Origin: Chloroflexia bacterium SDU3-3 | Lineage (GTDB): Bacteria > Chloroflexota > Chloroflexia > Chloroflexales > Roseiflexaceae | Direction of reading: 5' to 3' | Assembly (NCBI GenBank): GCA_009268125.1 | Contig: WBOU01000004.1 | Location: 148,494-212,493, forward strand | Length of the DNA: 64,000 nucleotides | In this document: positions 5,905 to 56,992 of the stretch, one piece after another | Layout of the letters: the number at the start of each line of letters is the position of its first letter | How positions within the stretch are numbered: position 1 is the first letter of the stretch | Translations under genes and position numbers: made by a program | The notes under the pieces: generated by a model | What the model saw: only the letters and a program-made list of their open reading frames with translations | What the model was told of the DNA's origin: nothing | Databases searched by the model: none

Positions 5905-6522
5905 ATTAGAGACCGGCTTCGCATCAACAACCGCATCCGCGCGCGCGAGGTTCGCGTGATCGACGACGAGAATAACCAGCTTGGTATTCTCCTCCTGCGC
6001 GATGCTTTGGCTTTGGCTGAGGAACGTGGGCTCGACCTTGTCGAGGTCGCGCCAAATGCTGTGCCGCCCGTGTGCCGCCTGATGGACCACGGGAAGTACC
6101 GCTATGAGCAGACAAAGAAGGAACGAGAGGCACGGAAGAATCAGAAGCAGGTTGAGATTAAGCAGATCCGCCTAGAGCCAAAGACCGACTCGCATGATAT
6201 TGATGTGAAGACAGGCCAGGCGCGGCGTTTCCTGCTGGAAGGCGACAAAGTCAAGTTCAACCTGCGGTTCCGTGGCCGCGAGATCGTCCACCAGGAAATT
6301 GGGCGCGAGATCCTGGAGCGGATTGCGGAGAACCTCCGCGATATCGCAATCGTCGAGCAGCGCCCGCTCATGGAAGGGAAAGTGCTGTCACTTACGCTGG
6401 CGCCTAATCAAAAGGCTAAGACTCAGCAATCACAGCGCCAACCCAAAGAAAATGCCGAGCGCCCCGCCCGGCCATCGCCCTCGGTAGAAACCGACGGGGC
6501 AGAGGAAGAGAACGAGGATTAG
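5905..6522 (+). CDS. infC: translation initiation factor IF-3, probable ATT start codon
   Basis: IRDRLRINNRIRAREVRVIDDENNQLGILLLRDALALAEERGLDLVEV... is the canonical IF3 sequence. In-frame ATT at 5905 follows RBS GAAGGAG with a 7-nt spacing, as expected for autoregulated infC. Confidence 0.85.
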   Translation: MRDRLRINNRIRAREVRVIDDENNQLGILLLRDALALAEERGLDLVEVAPNAVPPVCRLMDHGKYRYEQTKKEREARKNQKQVEIKQIRLEPKTDSHDIDVKTGQARRFLLEGDKVKFNLRFRGREIVHQEIGREILERIAENLRDIAIVEQRPLMEGKVLSLTLAPNQKAKTQQSQRQPKENAERPARPSPSVETDGAEEENED

Positions 6523-8161: not shown

Positions 8162-8243
8162 CTTCGCCTCTTCGCGGTAAATAGGTATCTTTACCTCTCT
8201 TGGTGCCTTGGTATCTTGGTGGTAAACGGTCTTGGTGGCGAAT
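8162..8243 (+). repeat. dispersed intergenic repeat copy F (CTTGGTG(G) direct-repeat module ending CTTGGTGGTAAA)
   Basis: cttcgcggtaaatagg...cttggtgccttggtatcttggtggtaaacggtcttggtgg. It shares modules with the copies at 28.3, 45.3, 50.9, 51.8 and 56.9 kb. Confidence 0.5.
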
Positions 8244-14316: not shown

Positions 14317-16632
14317 GTGCCACCCAATGCCATGGATCTAACCACCTCGATAGCGGCTGGTGGCAACGATGCCATATCAGAATCGCACCGTAGTCCCTCA
14401 TCCTCCCGTCGTAGCTCCTCGGCCAACCAGCTTCCGCCACTTGTGCCGAAGCCCGATTTTGCCGAAAGCCCGACGGCGCACGAGCTTGCCACAAGGCTGC
14501 TCTCCTATCAGCGCGCTGGCGATATGGCCGGTGCCACGATGGTGCGAAACGCCTATGCCGTCGCCCGCGAGGCCCACGAGGGCCAGCGCCGCAACTCCGG
14601 CGAGCCATACATCGATCACCCGGTCGCCGTCGCCAACATCCTCCTCGACCTGCGCATGGACCCCGCCTCGATCTCAGCAGCCCTCCTCCACGATGTCGTC
14701 GAAGATACCCCCATCACCAAAGAGCAGATCACCCAGTTCTTTGGCGAAGAGGTCGCGCATCTGGTGGATGGTGTCACCAAGCTGACCGTGCTGGAGAACC
14801 AGACCAAGGAGGAGGCCCAGGCCAACAGCTACCGCAAGATGTTCATCGCCATGGCCGACGACCCGCGCGTGGTGCTGGTGAAGCTGGCCGACCGCATGCA
14901 CAACATGCGCACCATCGGCTCCATGTCCACCGAGAGCCAGCGGCGCAACGCCCGCGAGACGCTGGACATCTACGCCCCGCTGGCCCACCGCCTGGGCATC
15001 TGGCAGATGAAGTGGGAGCTTGAGGACCGCTCGTTCCAGGTGCTCAACCCCGACAAATACTACGAGATCAGCCGCCAGCTGGCCCAGCGCCGCGAGATGC
15101 GCGAGCGCACCGTGCAGCGCGTGATCGAGAAGCTGCGCCAGGTGCTGGGCCGCGAGAACATCCAGGCCGACATCACAGGCCGCCCCAAGCATATCTTCTC
15201 GATCTACCGCAAGATGGAGCGCAAGGGCGTCAGCCTCGACCAGATCTACGACCAGCTGGCCGTGCGCGTGATCGTGAACAGCGTGGGCGAGTGCTACCAG
15301 GTGCTGGGCATCGCCCACACCACATGGCCCCCCGTGCCCGGCGAGTTCGACGACTACATCGCCAACCCCAAGGAGAGCATGTACCAGTCGCTCCACACCA
15401 CCGTGCTCATCCCCGGCGGCCAGCCCTGCGAGATCCAGATCCGCACCTGGGAGATGCACGAGATCTCCGAGCACGGCATCGCGGCCCACTGGCGCTACAA
15501 AGAGGGCTTCGGGCGGCGCGACACCTCGTTCGAGCACAAGCTGGCCTGGCTGCGCGGCCTGATCGACTGGCGGCGCGACCTCGACGACGCCAAGGAGTTC
15601 GTCGAGTCGCTCAAGTCCGAGGAGCTGGAGGAGCAGGTCTATGTGTTCTCGCCCAGGGGCAAGATCATCGATCTGCCGCTTGGCTCCACCCCGATCGACT
15701 TCGCCTACCGCATCCACTCGCAGATCGGCAACTCTTGCGTGGGCGCGAAGGTCAACAACCGCATGGTGCCGCTGGACTACCAGCTGAAGAGCGGCGAGAT
15801 CATCGAGATCATGACCTCGAAGACGGTGCGCGGCCCCAGCCGCGACTGGCTGAACTTCGTGCGCACCAACAGCGCCCGCGCCCACATCCGCCGCTACTTC
15901 AAGAAGATGCGCCGCGATGAGAACGAGACCGCTGGCCGCGACCTGCTGGAAAAAGAGCTGAAGAAGTTCGGCCTGTCGGTGCCCTTCGACCAGATCGCCC
16001 AGATCGTCGGCTCGAAGACGATCGAGGACGTGTTCGCCCTGATCGGCAGCGGCGACACCACCGCCCGCGCCGTGGGCCAGAAGGTGCTGCAGCAGCAGGC
16101 CGCCCAGGCCGCCGACCTCGCCCAGATCCCGCAGGTGGCCCCCGCGCCCGAGCGCCGCGCCGACCCCAAGGGCATCCAGGTGCGCGGCGCGGATGGCGTG
16201 CTCACCCGCCTGGCCAAGTGCTGCAACCCGATCATCGGCGAGCCGATCGTGGGCTATGTGACGCGCGGCAAGGGCATCACCATCCACCGCGCCGACTGTC
16301 ACACCATCCTCAACGAGCGCGACCAGGCCCGGCTGGTCGAGGTCACCTGGGGCGGCGGGCCGAAGCAGCAGGGCTTCTCGGTGCCGGTGCGGATCGAGGC
16401 CTGGGACCGCGTGGGCCTCTGGCGCGACATCACCAGCGTGATGGCCGACAACGGCATCAACATCGAAGAGGTACGCCAGGTGCCCACCCGCAAGCCCGAC
16501 CGCGCGATCCTGATGACTCTCCTCACTATCTGCTCCATCCCCCAGCTCACCATGATCATCGACAAGCTCAACCGCCTGCCCGACGTGATCGAGGCGCGGC
16601 GCGAGAACAGCGGCGCGGTGCCCGCCGCCTAG
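14317..16632 (+). CDS. rel: bifunctional (p)ppGpp synthetase/hydrolase (RelA/SpoT family)
   Basis: HD (GEPYIDHPVAVANILLDLRMD...LLHDVVEDT), synthetase, TGS (VYVFSPRGKIIDLPLGSTPIDFAY) and C-terminal ACT domains. Start uncertain (14317 or a later Met). Confidence 0.85.
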   Translation: MPPNAMDLTTSIAAGGNDAISESHRSPSSSRRSSSANQLPPLVPKPDFAESPTAHELATRLLSYQRAGDMAGATMVRNAYAVAREAHEGQRRNSGEPYIDHPVAVANILLDLRMDPASISAALLHDVVEDTPITKEQITQFFGEEVAHLVDGVTKLTVLENQTKEEAQANSYRKMFIAMADDPRVVLVKLADRMHNMRTIGSMSTESQRRNARETLDIYAPLAHRLGIWQMKWELEDRSFQVLNPDKYYEISRQLAQRREMRERTVQRVIEKLRQVLGRENIQADITGRPKHIFSIYRKMERKGVSLDQIYDQLAVRVIVNSVGECYQVLGIAHTTWPPVPGEFDDYIANPKESMYQSLHTTVLIPGGQPCEIQIRTWEMHEISEHGIAAHWRYKEGFGRRDTSFEHKLAWLRGLIDWRRDLDDAKEFVESLKSEELEEQVYVFSPRGKIIDLPLGSTPIDFAYRIHSQIGNSCVGAKVNNRMVPLDYQLKSGEIIEIMTSKTVRGPSRDWLNFVRTNSARAHIRRYFKKMRRDENETAGRDLLEKELKKFGLSVPFDQIAQIVGSKTIEDVFALIGSGDTTARAVGQKVLQQQAAQAADLAQIPQVAPAPERRADPKGIQVRGADGVLTRLAKCCNPIIGEPIVGYVTRGKGITIHRADCHTILNERDQARLVEVTWGGGPKQQGFSVPVRIEAWDRVGLWRDITSVMADNGINIEEVRQVPTRKPDRAILMTLLTICSIPQLTMIIDKLNRLPDVIEARRENSGAVPAA

Positions 16633-16728: not shown

Positions 16729-17760
16729 CTAGGCGGCCCCGCCCGAGCCATACAGGTGGCAGCGCACCCAGTGCTGCGGCCCGATCTGCTCGACGCCCGG
16801 CATGGCTTGCCTGCACACATCCATCACCTTGGGGCAGCGCGCCACGAACGGGCAGCCCGGCGGCGGATCGATCAGCGAGGGCACCTCGCCGCGCGCATCC
16901 ACCTTGGCCGCCGTCAGGCTGGCGTGGGGGTTGGGCACCGCCGAGAGCAGCAGCTTGGTGTAGGGGTGGGCGGGCTGGCTCATCAGCTCGTCGCTCTCGG
17001 CCCCCTCCACCATATGCCCGGCGTACATCACGATCGTCTGGTCGCCGATGTAGCGGGCGCTGGCGATGTCGTGGGTGATGTAGAGGTAGCCGATGCCGCG
17101 CTCCTCCTTCAGCTTCTCCATCAGGTTGAGCACGCCCATGCGGATGGAGACATCCAGCATCGAGATCGGCTCGTCGGCCAGGATGATCTCGGGGTCCACG
17201 GCCAGGGCGCGGGCGATGGCCACGCGCTGGCGCTGGCCGCCGGAGAGCTGGTAGGGGAACTTCTGGGCAAAGTCGGTGGCGGGGTTCAGGCCCACGGTGG
17301 TCAGCAGATCGATCACCTTGTCGTAGGCCTCGGCCTTGGATGCGGCCTTCTTGTGGATGAACAGCGGGCGCTCCAGGTGGTAGCCGATCGTCTGCGTGGG
17401 GTTGAGCGAGCCGAATGGATCCTGGAAGATCATCTGCACGTGGCTGCGGTACTCGCGCGAGGCGCTGCGCGGCTCGGCCTTCAGGATGTCCTGGCCGCGA
17501 AACAGGATCTCGCCTGCGGTGGGCGGCATCAGCCGCGCGATCAGGCGGGCCGTGGTGCTCTTGCCGCTGCCCGACTCGCCCACTAGCGAGATCACCTGGC
17601 CGCGCCGAATGCTAAACGAAACATCCTCCAGCGCGTGTACGTACCGCTTTTGAAACATGCCGCCCACCGGAAAGTGCTTGGTCAGGCCGCGCACCTCCAG
17701 CACCGGCGAGTCGGTATCGACGCCCGCCACCGTCGGCTGGGCAGTTGTCGGTTGCATCAT
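16729..17760 (-). CDS. oppF: peptide ABC transporter ATP-binding protein (OppF-like)
   Basis: Walker A GESGSGKST, signature LSGGQRQRV, Walker B ILADEP, C-terminal oligopeptide-transporter extension. RBS GAGGAGG before ATGATG. Confidence 0.8.
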   Translation of the reverse strand: MMQPTTAQPTVAGVDTDSPVLEVRGLTKHFPVGGMFQKRYVHALEDVSFSIRRGQVISLVGESGSGKSTTARLIARLMPPTAGEILFRGQDILKAEPRSASREYRSHVQMIFQDPFGSLNPTQTIGYHLERPLFIHKKAASKAEAYDKVIDLLTTVGLNPATDFAQKFPYQLSGGQRQRVAIARALAVDPEIILADEPISMLDVSIRMGVLNLMEKLKEERGIGYLYITHDIASARYIGDQTIVMYAGHMVEGAESDELMSQPAHPYTKLLLSAVPNPHASLTAAKVDARGEVPSLIDPPPGCPFVARCPKVMDVCRQAMPGVEQIGPQHWVRCHLYGSGGAA

Positions 17761-17798
17761 CGTCTATCCTCCTCAGCTGTGGTGCTGGGTTCCAGTTT

Positions 17799-18015
17799 GG
17801 TCGAGGTTCATTCTGACCCGGTCGAGGTTCATTCTGACCCGGTCGAGGTTCATTCTGACCCGGTCGAACCTCATTTTGCACCGGTCGAGGTTCATTCTGA
17901 CCCGGTCGAGGTTCATTCTGACCCGGTCGAGGTTCATTTTTTCGCCGTCGAACCTCATTTTGCACCGGTCGAGCCTCATTTTGCACCGGTCGAACCTCAT
18001 TTTGCACCGGTCGAG
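17799..18015. repeat. 21-bp tandem minisatellite, about 10.5 units, between oppD and oppF
   Basis: Unit GGTCGAGGTTCATTCTGACCC x3, then variants GGTCGAACCTCATTTTGCACC and GGTCGAGCCTCATTTTGCACC. Positions 7-9 alternate GGT/ACC/GCC. No spacers. Confidence 0.9.
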
Positions 18016-18022
18016 CCTGTAT

Positions 18023-18997
18023 CTAGTACAGGTGGCAGGCCACAAAATGCCCTGGCGCGACCTCGCGCAGGCGCGGCTCCTCCTGGGTATGGCGGGGCTG
18101 CACCTTGGCGCAGCGCGGGTGGAAGCGGCAGCCCGAGGGCGGGCAGACCATGTCGGGCGGCGCGCCGGGGATGCCGGTGAGCTTGACCTTGGGGCCGGTG
18201 ATCGACGGGAACGAGTTCATCAGCCCCTGGGTGTAGGGGTGCATGGGGTTCTTGAACAGCTCCTGCGCCGAGGTCAGCTCCACGATCTCGCCCGCGTACA
18301 TCACACCGATCCGGTCGGAGAACTCCACCATCAGCGAGAGATCGTGGGTGATGAAGAGGATGGAGAAGCCCATCTTCTCCTTCAGCTTCTCGATCTGCTG
18401 CATGATCTCCTTCTGCACCACCACATCGAGCGCGGTGGTCGGCTCGTCCATGATCATCAGCGGCGGGTTGAGCGCCAGGGCGATGGCGATCACCACGCGC
18501 TGGCGCATGCCGCCAGAAAGCTCGTGGGGGTAGGAGTCGATGCGCTGCTTTTCGATGCCCACCAGATCGAGCAGATAGGCGGCGCGATCGCGGGCCTCTT
18601 TTTTCGAGAGCTTGAGGTGGCGGATGATCACATCGCAGATCTGGTCGCCAATAGTGATCACGGGGTTGAGCGAGTTCATGGCGCTCTGAAACACCATGGA
18701 AACCTGGCTCCAGCGGAAGCTGCTCAGCTCGTCATCCTCCATCTCCAGCACATCATTGCCGCCAAACAGCACCTGGCCGCCGGTGATCACGGCAGGCGGG
18801 TGCAGCAGGCGCATCATGGCGTGGGCGATGGTAGACTTGCCGCTGCCCGACTCGCCCGCCAGGCCGAAGACCTCGCCGGGGGCGATCGAGAACGAGACGC
18901 CGTCGACGGCGCGCACGGGGCCGCGCGGGGTCATATACTGCACCTGCAGGTCGCGCACATCCAGCAGCGGGGAGCGCAGATCGTGGGCGCTAGGCAT
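18023..18997 (-). CDS. oppD: peptide ABC transporter ATP-binding protein (OppD-like)
   Basis: Walker A GESGSGKST, signature LSGGMRQRV, Walker B MIMDEP. Start trimmed to an internal Met to limit overlap with oppC (the track ORF extends to 19048). Confidence 0.75.
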   Translation of the reverse strand: MPSAHDLRSPLLDVRDLQVQYMTPRGPVRAVDGVSFSIAPGEVFGLAGESGSGKSTIAHAMMRLLHPPAVITGGQVLFGGNDVLEMEDDELSSFRWSQVSMVFQSAMNSLNPVITIGDQICDVIIRHLKLSKKEARDRAAYLLDLVGIEKQRIDSYPHELSGGMRQRVVIAIALALNPPLMIMDEPTTALDVVVQKEIMQQIEKLKEKMGFSILFITHDLSLMVEFSDRIGVMYAGEIVELTSAQELFKNPMHPYTQGLMNSFPSITGPKVKLTGIPGAPPDMVCPPSGCRFHPRCAKVQPRHTQEEPRLREVAPGHFVACHLY

Positions 18998-19970
18998 TGC
19001 GGACAACAGGAGTGGATCGGACACGGCGACGCTGTTTCTTGAAGACATTGCTCAGCTCCTTCTCGGCACGCAGGCGCGGGTTGGTGATCTCATCCATCGC
19101 GTAGTTGATCAGCGAGAGCGCGAACGCGACCAGCGCGACGCACAGGCCCGAGGGGATGATCGTCCACCACGCGCCCACCAGCAGCCCGGCGTTATTTTGC
19201 GCCCAGTACAGGTTGGTGCCCCAGCTCACATCGCTCACGTTGGTGAGGCCCAGGAAGCTGAGCGTGGTCTCCGCGCCGATGGCGTAGGTGACCGAGCCGA
19301 TGGTGCTACCCACGATCAGCGAGGTCATATTGGGCAGCAGCTCGCGGAAGACGATCCGCAGGCGGTTCTCGCCGCTGACCACCGCCGCCGATGCGAAGTC
19401 CTTCTCGCGCAGCGAGAGGGTCTGCGAGCGCATCACGCGGGCGGGCCATGCCCAGCCCACCACGCTCAGCACGAAGATCATAGTGAGCAGGCCGGGCTTG
19501 AGGAAGGCGGCCAGCACCACCAGCAGCGGCAGGCCGGGGATGATCAGCACCACGTTGGTGAGCAGCGAGAGCACATCGTCGATGCGCCCGCCGAAGTAGC
19601 CCGCGATCATGCCGATGGCCACGCCCACCAGCGTGGTGAGCAGGCCAGTGGAGAGGCCGACGGCCAGCGAGTTACGCGCGCCCCACACGGTCTGGCGGAA
19701 CACGTCTTTGCCCTGGCCCTCGGTGCCAAACCAGTGGGTGAGCGACGGCTCCTGGTGGGGCACATCCACAAACTCGTTGGGGTCGCCGGGGGCCACCAGG
19801 GGGGCGAACACCGCCATGAGGATGAAGAACAGCACGATCGCCGCGCCCACCATGCCCTTGGCGTTGCCGGTGATCACGCGCAGCCAGGTGGGCGCAAGCC
19901 GCTTGCTGGCGGGCTTGGCCACCGCAGGGGCCTTGGTAGCTGGGGCCTGCTGAAGATTCTGTGCCTGCAT
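18990..19970 (-). CDS. oppC: ABC transporter permease (OppC-like)
   Basis: 326 aa, about 6 TM helices, BPD-transporter permease signature region. Confidence 0.8.
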   Translation of the reverse strand: MQAQNLQQAPATKAPAVAKPASKRLAPTWLRVITGNAKGMVGAAIVLFFILMAVFAPLVAPGDPNEFVDVPHQEPSLTHWFGTEGQGKDVFRQTVWGARNSLAVGLSTGLLTTLVGVAIGMIAGYFGGRIDDVLSLLTNVVLIIPGLPLLVVLAAFLKPGLLTMIFVLSVVGWAWPARVMRSQTLSLREKDFASAAVVSGENRLRIVFRELLPNMTSLIVGSTIGSVTYAIGAETTLSFLGLTNVSDVSWGTNLYWAQNNAGLLVGAWWTIIPSGLCVALVAFALSLINYAMDEITNPRLRAEKELSNVFKKQRRRVRSTPVVRNA

Positions 19971-21061: not shown

Positions 21062-22870
21062 CTACTTCGGCTGGACGCTGGTCATCACCAGGAGCTGCTC
21101 GGGCGTGCCGCTGCCGAACGGCGAGCCCTGGGCGAAGGGGTTATCCTTCGAAGGCCAGCCGGTGAAGCGGCTGGTGTTGAACTCGTACCACGCCGGCCCA
21201 GGGAAGAGCGGGATGGCCGGGGCGTTGTCCGAGAACAGCTGCTCCAGCTGCTCGGCGATCTTCACCTGCTCGGCCTCGTCGGAGGTGGCGGCGAAATCGC
21301 CCAGCAGCTTGTCGGCCTCATCCAGGCCGAAGCGGTGCCAGTTCTGATCGGAGCTTTCGCCCACGGCCTTGACGGTGGTCTTCGACATCTGGCCACGGTA
21401 GTAGTTAAGCGGGGTCGCGCCGCCGTTGCTCCAGCCGATCGAGATGTCGAACTCGCCCTTCTGGACGCGGTCGTACCAGGCGCTGTAGTCGTAGCTCTTC
21501 ACCGAGGCGTTGATGCCCACGGCCTTGAGGTTCTGCGCGATGATGTTGCAGGCCGAGACCCAGTCGCTCCAGCCCGACACCACGTTGATGTCGTAGACCA
21601 GCGGGGTGCCATCGGACAGGGTGCGCATGCCGTCGCCACCCTTGGCCAGGCCAGCGGCATCCAGCAGTTCGTTGGCCTTGGCGATGTCAAGCTTGGTCCA
21701 GGTGCCCGCATCCACCACGGCCTGGCTTTTGTACTTGGGGTAGGCGTCGCTCAGACCAGTGACGTCGGCAGGCTTGGTGTAGCCGTACATGGCCACCTTG
21801 ACGACTTGGTCGCGGTTGATCGCCATGCTGATCGCCTTGCGCACGTTCACGTCGTCGAAGGGCTTCTTGGTGGTGTTCAGGTAGAGCATCACCGTCGCGC
21901 CCACCGGCGGGAAGTAGTAGCCGTTGTCGGGCGACTTGGCCACGTAGGTCTTCTCGATGTCGGGCAGGAAGTTCCCGGCCCAGTCGTTCTCGCCGTTGAT
22001 GGTGGCCAGGTTGGCCTGGTCGTTGCCGGGGTAGGCCGGGAAGCGCATACCGTCGATCATGGGCTTGCCCGACTGCCAGTAGTTGGGGTTCTTGTGAACC
22101 TCGTAGATCTGGTTCTGGAAGTTCTGCACCTCGGTGAACGGGCCAGTGCCGACCGGGGTCTCGTTGGTGAAGGTCACCGGATCCTTGACATCCTTCCAGA
22201 CGTGCTCGGCCACGATGTTCTGGCCCACGATGTCGTACAGGCCGACGGTGTAGACCTCTTTGAAGCTGAACTCGGCGGTGGTGTCGCTCGGCGCGGTCAC
22301 GGTGTCCAGGTAGACCCAGGCGTTCTGGCCGCTGCCGGTCAGGCCCTTGTTGGCCTTCTGCAGGTTGAAGGTGAAGGCCACATCCTTGGCGGTGAAGGCC
22401 TGGCCATCCGACCACTTCACATTGTCGCGGTAGGTGACGGTCAGCTTCTTGTTGTCGCTGCTCCACTCGTACTTGGTGGCCAGCCAGGGCGTCAGCTCGC
22501 CCTTGACCGTGTTGTAGACCATGGATGGCTCATAGATGCCATTGATCGTAGGGAATCGGTTGTCGGTGGCAAAGGGGTTGAAGTTGCGGGTCCAGGTGGC
22601 TTGCTGCTGGGCCGAGACGGTGAGCAGCGTGGCGCTGCCCGAGCCGCCGGTGGCAGGCGCGGTGGTGGCCTCGGCTGCGGCGGGCGCGGCGGTGGCCTCG
22701 GCTGCGGCGGGCGCGGCGGTGGGCTGCGCGGCAGGCGCGGCGGTGGGCTGCTGCGCGGCGGGCGGGGTGCCGCCACATGCGGCCACGGTCATCATCGTCG
22801 CGGTCCAAACCGGAATGGTCTTGAGAAAAGATCTGCGCCGTCGAAGGTTTAACATCATTGTCCCCCTCAA
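21062..22870 (-). CDS. oppA: ABC transporter substrate-binding lipoprotein (family 5, peptide/nickel type)
   Basis: 602 aa. Lipoprotein signal (...TVAACGG), Ala/Pro/Thr low-complexity linker, then an SBP-5 fold. First gene of the minus-strand opp operon. Confidence 0.8.
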   Translation of the reverse strand: MRGTMMLNLRRRRSFLKTIPVWTATMMTVAACGGTPPAAQQPTAAPAAQPTAAPAAAEATAAPAAAEATTAPATGGSGSATLLTVSAQQQATWTRNFNPFATDNRFPTINGIYEPSMVYNTVKGELTPWLATKYEWSSDNKKLTVTYRDNVKWSDGQAFTAKDVAFTFNLQKANKGLTGSGQNAWVYLDTVTAPSDTTAEFSFKEVYTVGLYDIVGQNIVAEHVWKDVKDPVTFTNETPVGTGPFTEVQNFQNQIYEVHKNPNYWQSGKPMIDGMRFPAYPGNDQANLATINGENDWAGNFLPDIEKTYVAKSPDNGYYFPPVGATVMLYLNTTKKPFDDVNVRKAISMAINRDQVVKVAMYGYTKPADVTGLSDAYPKYKSQAVVDAGTWTKLDIAKANELLDAAGLAKGGDGMRTLSDGTPLVYDINVVSGWSDWVSACNIIAQNLKAVGINASVKSYDYSAWYDRVQKGEFDISIGWSNGGATPLNYYRGQMSKTTVKAVGESSDQNWHRFGLDEADKLLGDFAATSDEAEQVKIAEQLEQLFSDNAPAIPLFPGPAWYEFNTSRFTGWPSKDNPFAQGSPFGSGTPEQLLVMTSVQPK

Positions 22871-27921: not shown

Positions 27922-28249
27922 GGAGCACCTCTATTTTCAATGCTGGCAGATAGGTGGAGATCCTCGGGGGATGCCTGCTGCTTCAAGCGGCCCACGCGGC
28001 CTCGGGGTCTTCAGCGCCACAAGGCCCGCCTGGGGTGGCTCCTAGCGCTCCGGCAAAGTTGGTCCTACGTTTGGTTTCGAGGGCAAGCCCTCATCCGCTC
28101 GCTTGCCCTCAGTATAGCAAGAAAATCTATCTGCGCGGCAAAAAAACGCGTGCCGCAGATAACAACATATTCAGAAAGATCTCGCGATTCTCTCCGATCA
28201 TACCATTCCCGCCCGCCCCGGTAAAGCAGGACTTTTTGGCAGAGTATGG

Positions 28250-28379
28250 GCCTATGCGTTCTCGTTCTGCAAAACGTTTTACCACCAAGACTCCAAGGAA
28301 CAAAAAGACCTCATCTATCACGAAGCCACGACTCCTGCGTTGCCTTCTTGCATGCTTTCTGGAGAACGCATAGATCCTT
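28250..28379. repeat. MITE-like dispersed repeat copy C, inverted orientation, with terminal inverted repeats
   Basis: cctatgcgttctcgttctgcaaaacgttttaccaccaag...gagaacgcatag: termini CTATGCGTTCTC / GAGAACGCATAG plus the TTTTACCACCAAG core. Confidence 0.6.
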
Positions 28380-45302: not shown

Positions 45303-45406
45303 TTCTTCGTGCCTTCGAGTCTTCGTGGTAAATAGGGTCGTATATTCCTTGGTGTCTTGGAGCCTTGGTGGTAAAACGTTCTGCCGAACGAGAACGCATA
45401 GACCCT
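45303..45406. repeat. dispersed repeat copy A
   Basis: ...cttcgtggtaaatagg...ccttggtgtcttggagccttggtggtaaaacgttctgccgaacgagaacgcatagaccctg. Has the 3' module but lacks the 5' TIR. Confidence 0.6.
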
Positions 45407-47998: not shown

Positions 47999-50482
47999 AT
48001 GGATGAGACGAAGATCAACCAGCTGCTCGACGCGATGACGCTTGAGGAGCAGGTGGCCCTGCTGGCCGGGGCCTCGTTCTGGGAGACAGTGCCGGTCGAG
48101 CGGCTGGGCATACCGGCCATCAAGGTCTCGGATGGCCCGAACGGCGCGCGCGGCGGCGGCAGCCTGGTGGGCGGCGTCAGCGCCGCCTGCTTCCCCGCAG
48201 GCATCTCGCTCGGCTCCAGCTGGAACACCGCTCTGATCGAGCAGGTGGGCAAGGCCCTAGGCGAGGAGGCCAAGACCAAGGGCGCGACCGTGCTGCTGGC
48301 CCCCACCGTCAACCTGCACCGCTCCACGCTCAACGGGCGCAACTTCGAGGCCTACTCCGAAGATCCCTACCTGACCGCCGAGATCGGCAAGGCCTATATC
48401 GAGGGCGTGCAGAGCACCGGCGTGGGCGCGACCATCAAGCACTATGTGGGCAACGAGTCCGAGTTCGAGCGCATGACGATCAACTCGGAGATCGACGAGC
48501 GCGCCCTACGCGAGCTGTACCTGCTGCCCTTCGAGGTGGCCGTGAAGCAGGCCCACGTGTGGGCGGTGATGGCGGCCTACAACAAGGTGAACGGCACCTA
48601 CGCCAGCGAGAACGCCCGCACCCAGATCGAGATCCTGAAGGACGAGTGGGGCTTCGACGGCGTGGTGATGTCCGACTGGTTCGCCACCCACAGCGTGGCC
48701 GAGACGCTGAACGGCGGCCTCGACCTGGAGATGCCCGGGCCGACCAAGTTCCGCGGCGAGCAGCTGGTGGCCGCCGTGCGCCAGGGCCAGGTGAGCGCCG
48801 AGGCGGTGCGCGAGAGCGCCCGCCGCATGCTGCGCCTGATCGCCCGCACCGGCGCGTTCGAGCGCCAGGGCGGCATCCCCGACGAGCAGGCGGTCAACCG
48901 CCCCGACCACCAGGCGCTGGCCCGCCGCGCCGCCGCCGAGGGCATCGTGCTGCTGAAGAACGAGGGCGTGCTGCCGCTCGACCCGGCCAAGATCGACAGC
49001 ATCGCGATCATCGGCCCCAACGCCAAGACCGCCCGGATCATGGGCGGCGGCAGCGCCCAGGTGAACGCGCACTACCGCGTCAGCCCCTACGAGGGCGTGG
49101 CGGCCCAGGTGGGCGAGCAGGTGGAGCTGGCCTTCGCGCCGGGCAGCACCAACCACAAGCTGCTGCCGCTGCTGGGCGGCGGCTTCGTCGTCGAGTACTT
49201 CAACAGCCCCGACCTCTCCGGCCCGGTCGTCTGGCAGAGCCAGACCAGCGAGGCCGAGCTGATGTGGTTCAACGAGATCGGCCCGGGCATCAACCCGCAG
49301 CGCTTCTCGGCGCGGATCAGCGGCCAGTTCGTGGCCGAGGAGGACGGCGAGTACCACTTTGGGCTGGTGAGCGCGGGCAAGAGCCGCCTGCTGGTGGATG
49401 GCAAGCTGGTGGTGGAGAACTGGGAGCAGTGGCAGCCCGGCGACACCTACTTCGGCGGCGGCAGCGTGGAGGCGATCGGCACCCTGGTGTGCAAGAAGGG
49501 CCAGACCTACGTGCTCAGCGTCGAGTACGGCTCCACCGGCGCGAGCGGCCTGGGCATCAACGCCGTGCGCGCAGGCGTCATCCTGCCGCTGGGCGAGGAC
49601 GCGATCGAGCAGGCCGCGCGGCTGGCCGCCCAGTCCGATGCGGCGGTGCTGTTCGTGGGCCTCAGCGGCGAGTGGGACAGCGAGGGTGCCGACCGCCCTC
49701 ACATGGATCTGGTGGGGCGGCAGGATGAGCTGATCGCCCGTGTGGCGGCGGCCAACCCGCGCACCGTGGTGGTGCTGCAGACCGGCGGGCCGATCACCAT
49801 GCCCTGGCTGGGACAGGTGGCGGGCGTGCTGCAGGCATGGTACCCCGGCCAGGAGTGCGGCAACGCGATCAGCGATGTGCTGTTCGGCGCGGTCAACCCC
49901 TCGGGCCACCTGCCCCAGAGCTTCCCGCACCGGCTGGAGGACAACCCGGCCTTCCTCAACTACCCCGGCGAGAATGGCAAGGTGCGCTACGGCGAGGGTA
50001 TCTTCATCGGCTACCGCTACTACGAGAAGAAGAAGATCGCGCCGCTCTTCCCCTTCGGCTTCGGCCTCTCGTACACCAGCTTCGCCTACACCAACCTGCG
50101 CCTGAGCGCATCCAGCATCCTGCCAGGCGGCCAGCTGACCGCCACGGTGGATGTGGCCAACACCGGCGAGCGCGCCGGGCAGGCGGTGGTGCAGCTCTAC
50201 GTGCGCGACCCGCAGTCGCGCCTGGCCCGCCCCGAGAAGGAGCTGAAGGGCTTCGCCAAGGTCGAGCTGGCCCCCGGCGAGACCCGCAGCGTGGCGATCA
50301 CGCTCGACATGCGCTCGCTGGCCTACTACGACGACGCCCGCGCCGCCTGGGTGGCCGACGCAGGCGCGTTCGAGGTGCTGATCGGCAGCTCCGCCGCCGA
50401 CATCCACCAGCGCGCCAGCTTCAGCCTAGCCGAGGAGTGGCACGAGCCAGCCAGCGCCAAATCTTCGCCTGTGAGCGCCTAG
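47999..50482 (+). CDS. GH3 beta-glucosidase with inserted PA14 domain and C-terminal Fn3-like domain
   Basis: 827 aa. GH3 N-terminal region (KVSDGPNGARG, catalytic region SDW), PA14 insert (EYHFGLVSAGKSRLLVDGKLVV), GH3 C-terminus. Confidence 0.85.
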   Translation: MDETKINQLLDAMTLEEQVALLAGASFWETVPVERLGIPAIKVSDGPNGARGGGSLVGGVSAACFPAGISLGSSWNTALIEQVGKALGEEAKTKGATVLLAPTVNLHRSTLNGRNFEAYSEDPYLTAEIGKAYIEGVQSTGVGATIKHYVGNESEFERMTINSEIDERALRELYLLPFEVAVKQAHVWAVMAAYNKVNGTYASENARTQIEILKDEWGFDGVVMSDWFATHSVAETLNGGLDLEMPGPTKFRGEQLVAAVRQGQVSAEAVRESARRMLRLIARTGAFERQGGIPDEQAVNRPDHQALARRAAAEGIVLLKNEGVLPLDPAKIDSIAIIGPNAKTARIMGGGSAQVNAHYRVSPYEGVAAQVGEQVELAFAPGSTNHKLLPLLGGGFVVEYFNSPDLSGPVVWQSQTSEAELMWFNEIGPGINPQRFSARISGQFVAEEDGEYHFGLVSAGKSRLLVDGKLVVENWEQWQPGDTYFGGGSVEAIGTLVCKKGQTYVLSVEYGSTGASGLGINAVRAGVILPLGEDAIEQAARLAAQSDAAVLFVGLSGEWDSEGADRPHMDLVGRQDELIARVAAANPRTVVVLQTGGPITMPWLGQVAGVLQAWYPGQECGNAISDVLFGAVNPSGHLPQSFPHRLEDNPAFLNYPGENGKVRYGEGIFIGYRYYEKKKIAPLFPFGFGLSYTSFAYTNLRLSASSILPGGQLTATVDVANTGERAGQAVVQLYVRDPQSRLARPEKELKGFAKVELAPGETRSVAITLDMRSLAYYDDARAAWVADAGAFEVLIGSSAADIHQRASFSLAEEWHEPASAKSSPVSA

Positions 50483-50649: not shown

Positions 50650-50812
50650 TCGGCGATGATGATTAAGCTTCCGGCGATGGTGATTAAGCTTCCGGCGATG
50701 ATGATTAAGCTTCCGGCGATGATGATTAAGCTTCCGGCGATGATGATTAAGCTTCCGGCGATGGTGATTAAGCTTCCGGCGATGGTGATTAAGCTTCCGG
50801 CGATGGTGCTGT
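50650..50812. repeat. 21-bp tandem minisatellite, about 7.8 units, AT-rich, between bglX and birA
   Basis: Unit CCGGCGATG(A/G)TGATTAAGCTT with R = A/G variation. Contains AAGCTT. No spacers. Confidence 0.9.
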
Positions 50813-50860: not shown

Positions 50861-50890
50861 AAAACTTGGAGCCTTCTTGGTGGTAAAAAT
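50861..50890. repeat. dispersed repeat fragment E (core only)
   Basis: aaaacttggagccttcttggtggtaaaaat, preceded by the complementary gccaccaa giving a possible hairpin. Confidence 0.4.
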
Positions 50891-50930: not shown

Positions 50931-51725
50931 ATGACAACCGACACCCCTCTCATCGGGAGCCAGATCGAGCGCCACGCGCAGGTCGGCTCCACCAACGACA
51001 TGGTGCGCGAGCGCGCCAGGGCCGGGGCCGCCGAGGGCCTGGCGATCATCGCCGACGAGCAGACCAAGGGGCGCGGTCGCCTGGGCCGCGCCTGGGCCGC
51101 GCCGCCCGGCGGCTGCCTGCTGCTCTCGGCGCTGCTGCGGCCCACGTGGCTTCCGCCCGCCGACTCGTTCCTGATCACCATGCTGGCCGCCACCGCGCTG
51201 TGCGAGGCCGCCGAGCTGGCCGCGCCCCAGCTGCGGGCCCGGCTGAAATGGCCCAACGACCTGCTGCTGCCCGCCGCGCCGCAGCCCAACGCGCCGCTGC
51301 GCAAGGCCGCAGGCATCCTCTGCGAGCTGGCGGTGGAGCGGGGCCAGATCGCCCACGTGGCCCTGGGCATCGGCGTGAACGTCAGCTGGCACCCGCAGGG
51401 CGTGGTGGATGGCCGCGATCTGGGCGCGCAGGCCACCAGCCTGGGCGCGGCCAGCGGCCAGCCGGTGGACCGCGAGCGGCTGCTGGCCGCGCTGCTGACC
51501 AGGCTCGACGCCCGCTACGCGGCGCTGCGGCGCGGCCACCGCGAGTCGCTGTTTGCCGAGTGGCAGGGGCGGCTGGCCACACTCGGCCAGCAGGTGGAGG
51601 TGAGCATCCCCGGCGCGGGCGTGCTGCGCGGCCTGGCCGAGGGCGTGGACCGCAACGGCTCGCTCATCCTGCGCGGCGGCGACGGCCAGCGCCACACCAT
51701 CACCGCTGGCGACGTGCAGGCGTAG
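50931..51725 (+). CDS. birA: biotin--[acetyl-CoA-carboxylase] ligase, group I (no N-terminal HTH)
   Basis: 264 aa. Begins directly with the catalytic domain (QVGSTNDMVRERA...GRGRLGRAW GxGxxG-like), C-terminal SH3-like domain. Confidence 0.8.
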   Translation: MTTDTPLIGSQIERHAQVGSTNDMVRERARAGAAEGLAIIADEQTKGRGRLGRAWAAPPGGCLLLSALLRPTWLPPADSFLITMLAATALCEAAELAAPQLRARLKWPNDLLLPAAPQPNAPLRKAAGILCELAVERGQIAHVALGIGVNVSWHPQGVVDGRDLGAQATSLGAASGQPVDRERLLAALLTRLDARYAALRRGHRESLFAEWQGRLATLGQQVEVSIPGAGVLRGLAEGVDRNGSLILRGGDGQRHTITAGDVQA

Positions 51726-51744: not shown

Positions 51745-51870
51745 GCGAAGACGCGAAAAACGAAAACTTCTTGCTATTCGTTTCTTCTACTCTTCTACCC
51801 TCTTGGTGTCTTGGAGCCTTGGTGGTAAAAACCCTCGTGCCTTCGCGTCTTCGTGGTATTCGTTCTCTTG
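51745..51870. repeat. dispersed repeat copy D with its own flanking inverted repeat
   Basis: gcgaagacgcgaa...cttggtgtcttggagccttggtggtaaaaaccctcgtgccttcgcgtcttcgtggtattcg. Shares the cttcgtgg/ctcgtgcc modules with copy A. Confidence 0.5.
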
Positions 51871-51923
51871 GAACCTTCATTGACGGGCCAAAAGAGATGG
51901 GGTACACTCGCCGCAGGACGCCA

Positions 51924-53763: not shown

Positions 53764-55038
53764 CTAGGCCAGTGTCTGCACCATCTGGTAGGTCTCGCGC
53801 AGCCGCTGGTCGTTTGGCGCAAGCGTGATCGCGTGTTCGAGGGTGGAGATCGCCTTTGCGCGCTGCTTGACCTGGGCGTAGGCGAGGCCTAGCGCATGCA
53901 GGTACTGCACGTTTGCCGCATCGCCATAGGCTGCCGCCTCCCACTCTTGCATGGCCGCATACCACATTCCCTGCTCTTTCAGGGCTATCCCGGTATTGTA
54001 GTGCTCAGCGGCTGTGCCCGCGCCCACCGTGTGCACAAAGCGCACCTTGCTGCCAAAGACCTTGGGGTAGCCTCGGTAGAGCAAAAACCCTTGGAACGAG
54101 ATCCATAGGAAGCTGATAACGAGCACAACTAGCATCAGCACCATGATCATCGTTGAGGACGTGAGCATCTGGATATCATCGCTTTGTGCAACCATGATCA
54201 CAAACTCAACAACACGCTGGAGAAAGCCAAGCGTATTCAGGCCAAGCAGAATGACGGCCACGATGAAGGCCCAGCGCCGCCGCAGGAACAGGCCGCGCGC
54301 GATCAGAATGGCGGGAAGGGATATGACGGACAAGATGATAAGCACGATAATCCTGCTGGCGCCATCCAACAGCAGATCAACCCTGCTATTCATGATTGGA
54401 CCCCAAAGGAAAATCACAAACACAAAGGCGATAATCACCGGCAGCACCCAGAGAAATGCCAGCAGCGTGAGCGAGCGGCTGCCCTCCTCAGGGTTCGGCG
54501 GGGTGTGCAGCAGCATGGGGCGGCTGCACTGGGTGCACCGCCGTAGCTTGAGCGGCATCATCGCGCCGCAGCAGGGGCAGGGGGCCGCATCGCCTGCCAC
54601 GGGTGCGGCAGGTGCGGGCCGCGCAACCTCGACGTCGGCCACAGCGGGCGCGGCCATCGGCTCGCTGGGAGGCGCAGCGGGCGTGGCCACCTCGGCAGCG
54701 GGCGCGGCCACCTCGGCGGCGGGCGCAGGGGTAGCGGGTGCGGCAGCCTCGGCGGGCGCGGCGGGCGCATCCGCTGGCTGGCCCACCTCGCGCGCCTGGG
54801 GCCTGCCATACTTCTGATCAAGGATGGCAATACCTTTGAGGGCATGCGGGTTGCTCGGCTCCAGGTGCAGCACATTGTCTAGGCAGACCCGCATCTCCTC
54901 GGGGTCATCCACCACGCCAGAGAGCCACAGCCAGGCCTGCGCGTTCCGCTCGTCGGTCTCAAGCACGCGCATCAGCAAGGCGCGCGCCTCCTCGCGGCGG
55001 CCAGCACGGGCCGCCGCCATCGCATCTGATAGAGTCAT
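53764..55038 (-). CDS. TPR / zinc-ribbon / multi-TM membrane protein
   Basis: N-terminal TPR-like segment, Ala/Pro-rich linker, CPCC...CTQC zinc ribbon, about 4 TM helices, C-terminal TPR repeats. Its ATG overlaps the upstream gene's stop (ATGA). Confidence 0.5.
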
Positions 55039-56855: not shown

Positions 56856-56992
56856 ACAGGGTCTATGCGTTCTACGCAGCCTTTACGCTGGGGTAAACGG
56901 GCAACGTTCCAAGCATAGCCTATGTTTGCCCCAGTGCAGTTTGGAGTCTTGGTGGTAAAAATGTTCTGCCGAACGAGAACGCACAGGCGCTA
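56856..56992. repeat. MITE-like dispersed repeat copy B, complete with TIRs
   Basis: cagggtctatgcgttctacg...gtttggagtcttggtggtaaaaatgttctgccgaacgagaacgcacag. Confidence 0.6.

Follow-up and report, generated by a model that had tools for sequence, protein, structure and literature searches.

To our knowledge, the only well-studied example of a satellite located inside an operon is MIRU. REP and BIME elements can modulate the relative expression of the cistrons that flank them. These elements are cited in PMC3184786 from intercistronic regions, for example, the hisJ-hisQ and malE-malF spacers of enterobacteria. MIRU consists of transcribed, ORF-bearing tandem units between operon genes, with filled and empty sites (PMC3184786, PMC12548453, PMC4213456). 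BrickBuilt of Porphyromonas gingivalis is a minisatellite-MITE with a 23-nt unit, present at 19 loci (PMC4596501). A survey of prokaryotic satellites found that many are unique in sequence and often species-specific, and that non-coding satellite families spread within a prokaryotic genome are rare; the Chloroflexus aurantiacus genome is among the satellite-rich bacteria, with the heptamer GATAGRA, and Leptospira interrogans has transposed satellite families with units of 37-69 nt (PMC6749651).

The array described here belongs to Chloroflexia bacterium SDU3-3 and was analyzed within a window of 64,000 nucleotides, the whole stretch of DNA under study. Pfam domains and the sequence revealed an operon on the minus strand that encodes an SBP_bac_5 protein, two BPD_transp_1 permeases, and ATPase D, followed by the array, a Shine-Dalgarno sequence, and ATPase F. 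Since a convergent relA/spoT gene comes next, the operon ends at oppF, whose product is 100% identical to the SDU3-3 protein P0001. The name "opp" is used as a family label only. The features of the locus are as follows.

21062..22870, minus strand: SBP_bac_5 binding protein (Pfam)
18023..19048, minus strand: upstream ABC ATPase (OppD/DppD-like) with ABC_tran and oligo_HPY, ending ...CHLY-TAG (Pfam, C-termini)
18016..18032, minus strand: small hairpin CCTGTA-CTAGA-TACAGG across the oppD stop, abutting the first unit (sequence, MFE structure)
17799..18015, minus strand: 21-bp satellite array, 10 full units and a 7-nt partial unit (TRF, unit list, sequence)
17967..18015, minus strand: third, partial higher-order block (TRF period 84, units)
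17883..17966, minus strand: second 84-bp block, A A H B' on the plus strand (TRF period 84, units)
17799..17882, minus strand: first 84-bp higher-order block, A A A B on the plus strand (TRF period 84, units)
17773..18000, minus strand: open frame through the array in the oppF phase, heptads MNLDRVR/MRFDRCK, 75 codons plus TGA, one ATG per unit (translation)
17768..17774, minus strand: oppF Shine-Dalgarno GAGGAGG, 7 nt ahead of the ATG at 17760, overlapping the TGA at 17775-17773 (sequence)
16729..17760, minus strand: downstream ABC ATPase (OppF/DppF-like) with ABC_tran and oligo_HPY, last gene of the operon (Pfam)
14317..16632, plus strand: relA/spoT, convergent, beyond oppF

The spacer between oppD and oppF (17761..18022) measures 262 bp. 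The preliminary description had the array filling it; the placement in the spacer held, and the array itself covers 217 of the 262 bp, leaving a remainder of 45 bp. Read along the transcript, the oppD stop TAG (18025-18023) is followed by ATAC, the array, and then 38 nt in which GAGGAGG stands 7 nt ahead of the ATG. The GAGGAGG at 17774-17768 bears out the earlier proposal that oppF has its own ribosome-binding site and that the array is intercistronic and non-coding.

Tandem Repeats Finder identified 17799..18015 as an array with a period of 21, 10.3 copies, 85% matches, and a score of 238, confirming the minisatellite of about 10.5 units previously noticed between oppD and oppF. Periods of 42, 63, and 84 were also reported, with 84 scoring best (322, 87% matches). 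In the plus-strand reading, the A unit GGTCGAGGTTCATTCTGACCC is present in five exact copies starting at 17799, 17820, 17841, 17883, and 17904, and the B unit GGTCGAACCTCATTTTGCACC is exact at 17862 and 17988. Two one-mismatch variants, at 17946 (C at position 1) and 17967 (GCC), bring the B units to four in all. A single hybrid unit H, GGTCGAGGTTCATTTTTTCGC, is located at 17925, and the 7-nt partial unit occupies 18009-18015, with unit similarity extending to 18018. Along the transcript strand the units run B B B H A A B A A A; on the plus strand they read AAAB / AAHB' / B B, an order that accounts for the 84-bp higher-order period.

No matches to A or B arose by chance in 100 dinucleotide shuffles of the window, and no further unit copies were found in the 64 kb, even with 6 mismatches or with an nhmmer profile. 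The units are contiguous, spaced exactly 21 bp from start to start, and devoid of unique spacers, an arrangement distinct from that of a CRISPR. Head-to-tail repeats of 10-100 bp with variant units are what is generically described as a bacterial VNTR or minisatellite, and the array has this organization. An assembler that uses short k-mers could miscount a run of three identical units (63 bp), and the array or its unit number could thus be a product of mis-assembled repeats. We regard such an artefact as highly improbable: the array is only 217 bp long, its interspersed variant units fix the order, the contig around it is 490 kb long, and an independent related array is present on another contig.

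Compared with the described systems, the array has MIRU as its closest positional analogue. Like MIRU, it comprises minisatellite-type units between co-oriented operon genes, it is probably transcribed with the operon, its site is filled or empty among relatives, the family occupies more than one locus of the genome, and an open frame runs on the operon strand. The array is nevertheless not a member of MIRU, from which it differs in unit size (40-100 bp in MIRU, 21 bp here), in sequence, and in taxon (mycobacteria versus Chloroflexota). The MIRU ORF overlaps the flanking stop and start (-4), whereas a 12-nt gap to the oppF ATG is found here. MIRU is also present at approximately 40-50 loci, compared with two known here (at least two; none elsewhere in the 64-kb window), and is flanked by tetranucleotide direct repeats, of which none were seen at the opp array.

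BrickBuilt resembles the array in being short, spacer-less, species-restricted, and present at multiple loci of one genome, but differs in its leader and tail subunits, which end in inverted repeats, and in its promoter activity. A search for terminal inverted repeats between 17700 and 18100 disclosed nothing beyond the 6-bp hairpin that spans the stop of oppD and, within coding DNA, pairs at chance level; that hairpin (18016..18032) is absent in the relatives L008 and L011. No convincing target duplications were observed around the array. The Leptospira and Chloroflexus satellites share with it the presence of non-coding repeats at more than one locus of a genome, yet their units are different and none has been described inside an operon. 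REP and BIME elements, likewise repeated extragenic sequences within operons, differ as well; REPs are imperfect palindromes of about 35 bp in hundreds of copies with strong stem-loops, whereas the opp unit is no strong palindrome, folds no better than permuted controls (z = -1.19), and has no other copy in the window. The array fits the picture of prokaryotic satellites as a new case.

To place the array in its lineage, the orthologous loci of four lineages were compared. The best OppF homologue outside SDU3-3 is 82% identical, and P0001 forms a singleton cluster.

L008: OppF identity 82%, oppD-oppF spacer 48 bp
L011: OppF identity 80%, oppD-oppF spacer 72 bp
L042: OppF identity 77%, oppD-oppF spacer 29 bp
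L043: OppF identity 76%, oppD-oppF spacer 113 bp

None of these four spacers contains a related array, and the 45 bp that remain in SDU3-3 after subtraction of the array are in line with the 29-113 bp of the relatives. Absence from close relatives with the same operon, which the preliminary description had named as speaking against its regulatory proposal, is thus what was found in the four lineages. Nor was a recognizable proto-unit detected in the spacers of the relatives examined (L008, L011, and L043). The OppD C-terminus ...CHLY-stop is common to the window, L008, and L011; this conserved position places the array beyond the natural oppD stop.

The 113-bp spacer of L043 (2388..2500) contains an extended, imperfect inverted repeat in which AGAACAAAG-type repeats face their complement. 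In that lineage, then, a different structured insert was acquired independently at the same site. In the closest relatives (L008 and L011-L016), the operon runs on past oppF into GH1, a small uncharacterized ORF, and GH3 beta-glucosidase genes, and in L043 a GH1 gene (5937..6059) is located farther downstream. Because the operon genes of relatives adjoin GH1 and GH3 beta-glucosidase genes, the importer may, judging from this gene neighborhood, take up an oligosaccharide rather than a peptide.

Searches beyond the relatives used the degenerate unit pattern GGTCGARSYTCATTYTGMMCC on genomes, metagenomes, and viral contigs. It matched 7 times in GTDB representative genomes, none of them Mycobacterium, and 24 times in JGI metagenomes; all of these matches are isolated singles, and no tandem copies were found in either collection. 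Viral contigs gave zero matches, and BLAST with the array against plasmids and phages retrieved nothing. The array is therefore known from one genome, SDU3-3.

Within SDU3-3, a second locus was disclosed at the protein level. The peptide translated from the array in the oppF-phase frame had a single match among 5.8 billion proteins, P0121, the SDU3-3 "hypothetical protein F8S13_04080", encoded on another contig. P0121 contains nine MSLDRVK/MNLDRVK heptads, followed by MNLDQ and a 60-residue tail, and it is 70% identical to the frame of the opp array. Its DNA thus comprises a related 21-bp array and, approximately 70 nt later, another repeat element, which places the satellite at no fewer than two loci in this genome. 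Residues 84-113 of the tail aligned by tblastn to three copies of a dispersed motif in the window (8201-8230, 45347-45388, and 51804-51879); the intergenic motif so translated is CTTGGnGTCTTGGAGCCTTGGTGGTAAA. As the tail translates a dispersed intergenic element, P0121 is a spurious ORF over non-coding DNA. The second locus adjoins this element, and placement inside an operon is seen for the opp array only. The P0121 array has no B-type units, and pairing between A and B is hence not a property of the family.

The dispersed intergenic element has the form of an 8-bp triplet plus GGTAAAA (CTTGGTGTCTTGGAGCCTTGGTGGTAAAA), with at least six copies in the 64 kb (8199-8227, 45305-45333, 45348-45376, 50869-50890, 51802-51830, and 56932-56960) and an inverted copy at 28248-28304. 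Some copies extend further and form a small hairpin, CGTTCTGCCGAACGAGAACG. A second, unrelated intergenic 21-bp array (50651..50805), with 7.4 units of CGGCGATGRTGATTAAGCTTC at 97% match, lies about 65 nt upstream of one copy of this CTTGG... motif. It is positioned between a GH3 beta-glucosidase gene (47999..50482, plus strand) and a biotin-ligase-like gene (start near 50932, plus strand).

Two open reading frames bear on the question of whether the array is translated, and on the transcript strand the unit keeps two frames open. ORF 17612..18007, in the OppD frame, has a GC content by codon position of 0.85/0.48/0.32, the inverse of the pattern in real genes of the window (0.55-0.72 / 0.40-0.46 / 0.89-0.94). 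It is accordingly a shadow, as had been claimed for it together with the non-coding status of the array. Read-through of the oppD TAG to yield a C-terminal extension was considered and rejected; the stop position is conserved and GC3 there is 0.32.

The frame at 17773..18000 has GC values of 0.49/0.32/0.85, a gene-like GC3. As coding evidence this value is under-powered, since it represents effectively 7 codons, and by our own estimate about 30% of 21-nt units would show a GC3 of 6/7 by chance. Of the seven codon differences that distinguish the unit types in this frame, every one is non-synonymous. The unit ATGs have no Shine-Dalgarno sequence ahead of them, the first in-phase ATG (18000) is approximately 22 nt past the oppD TAG and does not overlap it, and the frame stops at TGA 17775-17773, 12 nt before the oppF ATG at 17760. 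We judged this frame to be no gene.

Databases were also searched with the heptad peptide. HMMER against 1.8 billion representative proteins gave 382 matches, of low identity except for P0121. Those sampled were rejected as homologues, being ORFs on unrelated 21-bp repeats (Sorangium, Spirochaetaceae, and others). The other three open frames, joined in one concatenated query, retrieved nothing from SDU3-3; the sole match of that query (P0122/L041) was an unrelated coding G-S-P-F repeat on a eukaryote-like contig and was set aside. Several of the heptad "hypothetical proteins" in public databases (among them P0121; P0140 of Sorangium sce5127; P0241 and P0272 of Spirochaetaceae) look like translated 21-bp minisatellites with junk flanks, which points to a recurrent annotation artefact.

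These observations weigh on the idea that the array encodes a small coiled-coil-like protein built of heptad repeats, or else extends OppD or OppF. In favor of this idea, the frame is open and has a GC3 of 0.85, Leu and Val fall at heptad a/d spacing, and NCBI annotates a protein in the same frame of the paralogous array. However, the tail of that protein is a translated intergenic repeat, the matches sampled beyond SDU3-3 are junk ORFs on 21-bp repeats of unrelated sequence, OppD ends at its conserved position, and TGA and TAG part the frame from oppF. Together with the lack of a Shine-Dalgarno sequence and of synonymous variation, and with the absence of the array in relatives, they leave a protein product extremely improbable and already largely refuted.

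Translation could alternatively matter without a functional product. The array would then be a MIRU-like mobile intercistronic minisatellite, a dispersed family inserting between genes, whose translated frame would keep the spacer covered by ribosomes and deliver them near the oppF start, thereby minimizing polarity. MIRU provides a documented precedent (PMC12548453, PMC3184786). In its favor, the genome has two or more loci of the family, relatives have an empty site where SDU3-3 has a filled one, the period is divisible by three, and the operon-strand frame combines its GC3 with ten in-phase ATGs and a TGA (17775-17773) that overlaps GAGGAGG. Such a relay nevertheless appears rather unlikely. 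Its unit ATGs lack Shine-Dalgarno sequences and the first of them does not overlap the oppD stop, its ORF ends 12 nt upstream of the oppF ATG in place of the -4 overlap typical of MIRU, its GC3 is attained by chance in the proportion of units estimated above, and none of the 7 codon differences is synonymous. Of the two loci, only the opp one is seen to be intercistronic; the second adjoins the dispersed intergenic element, and neither a target-site duplication nor a terminal repeat is evident. The broader proposal is also an unlikely one, namely that the 21-bp unit constitutes a MIRU-like mobile family in Chloroflexota, the first outside mycobacteria, that would settle between cistrons or upstream of genes, would always keep a translatable frame through a period divisible by three, an ATG per unit, and a stop within the Shine-Dalgarno sequence of the following gene, would relay ribosomes across the insert, and would tune the stoichiometry of the two ATPase subunits through unit number.

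At the RNA level, the preliminary description had observed that A and B units are complementary, and in fact GAGGTTC (A positions 5-11) is the reverse complement of GAACCTC in B. Stem-loops between A and B (GAACCUC/GAGGUUC) could act as a decay barrier, a processing site, or an attenuator that sets the oppD:oppF ratio, in the manner of REP/BIME elements. Neighboring A-B and B-A units are predicted to form hairpins of 7-9 bp at -9.4 to -11.8 kcal/mol, and the fold of the 280-nt spacer has z = -3.2 relative to dinucleotide shuffles. The L043 lineage, moreover, carries another structured inverted repeat at the same site. On the other side, A-A neighbors are predicted at -9.2 kcal/mol, an all-A array at -75.8 kcal/mol versus -80.6 for the native one, and the opposite strand folds equally well (z = -3.15).

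A second null was built by column permutation, with the same permutation applied to every unit so that repetition and the variant pattern were kept. Against such arrays the native one reached only z = -1.19, and 12% of the controls fold as well; the value of -3.2 is thus an artefact of repetition. The oppF Shine-Dalgarno sequence is predicted to be unpaired with a probability of 0.46 in the native spacer, 0.40 with the array deleted, and 0.41 +/- 0.10 with the array shuffled, meaning that its accessibility is unchanged. A consensus scan inside the array detected no terminator-like site, U-tract terminator, or promoter-like (sigma-70-like) site. Rfam gave no match at gathering score and none at E <= 1 on 17650-18150, and the paralogous array has no B units with which A could pair. 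A functional RNA is consequently improbable, and the earlier suggestion that A/B pairing indicates a stabilizer or attenuator finds no support in the column-permuted null, the near-equal all-A array, and the unchanged accessibility of the ribosome-binding site.

At the DNA level, the array could present sites every 21 bp on one face of the helix, bound by a dimeric regulator or a nucleoid protein. The 9-bp palindrome GACCCGGTC is found at each A-A junction and ACCGGT at the B junctions, the period equals two helical turns, and the window contains the second, unrelated 21-bp array. By our estimate, though, a 4+4 palindrome arises by chance in about one in six 21-nt units. The array is internal to the operon, away from the promoter, the neighboring genes include no candidate for a binding protein, and the motif recurs nowhere else in the window even with 6 mismatches. 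A protein-binding array is, on these grounds, very unlikely.

The reading we favor, with reasonable rather than high confidence, is that a young minisatellite, non-coding and lineage-specific, occupies the spacer of an Opp/Dpp-family ABC importer operon and most likely has no dedicated function. Five identical A units and the duplicated 84-bp block suggest its youth. An ancestral spacer of approximately 45 bp would have gained one 21-bp unit, which may have multiplied by replication slippage or unequal recombination, and an AAAB block of 84 bp was presumably duplicated at a higher order. The B-type unit probably arose locally. Its change from GGT to ACC is flanked by self-complementary GA/TC, and one 3-nt inversion or template switch would be a simpler origin than selection for pairing; this agrees with the lack of B units in the paralogous array.

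The array is likely co-transcribed with the operon. It is probably tolerated because a strong Shine-Dalgarno sequence immediately beyond it serves the translation of oppF independently, and any effect on the dosage of oppF or on mRNA decay would be modest and incidental. Changes in unit number would make the array a VNTR-type polymorphism. Several observations are less easily reconciled with neutrality. Recurrence of the family in the genome could reflect mobility or function, and the two open frames, one of them with a gene-like GC3, an ATG in each unit, and a stop overlapping the oppF Shine-Dalgarno sequence, resemble MIRU ORFs. The period of 21 in the unrelated array at 50651..50805 hints at a non-random preference, for example, for a multiple of three or for two helical turns.

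As things stand, the array matters little, being one more species-specific bacterial minisatellite. It could serve as a strain-typing (VNTR) marker for the SDU3-3 lineage. Annotators should be cautious, given that a hypothetical protein has been annotated over the paralogous array and that several hundred similar heptad matches were returned by HMMER. Its importance would be greater if the family proves numerous and targeted to intercistronic sites, since such spreading families are rare (PMC6749651).

The window also contains a GC-rich 27-bp repeat of 4.3 copies (22652..22764). It falls close to the 5' end of the ORF for the binding protein (21062..22870, minus strand), where it probably encodes an Ala/Pro-rich linker after the signal/lipobox region. 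Comparable GC-rich repeats are present at 1473-1633 and 54674-54768.
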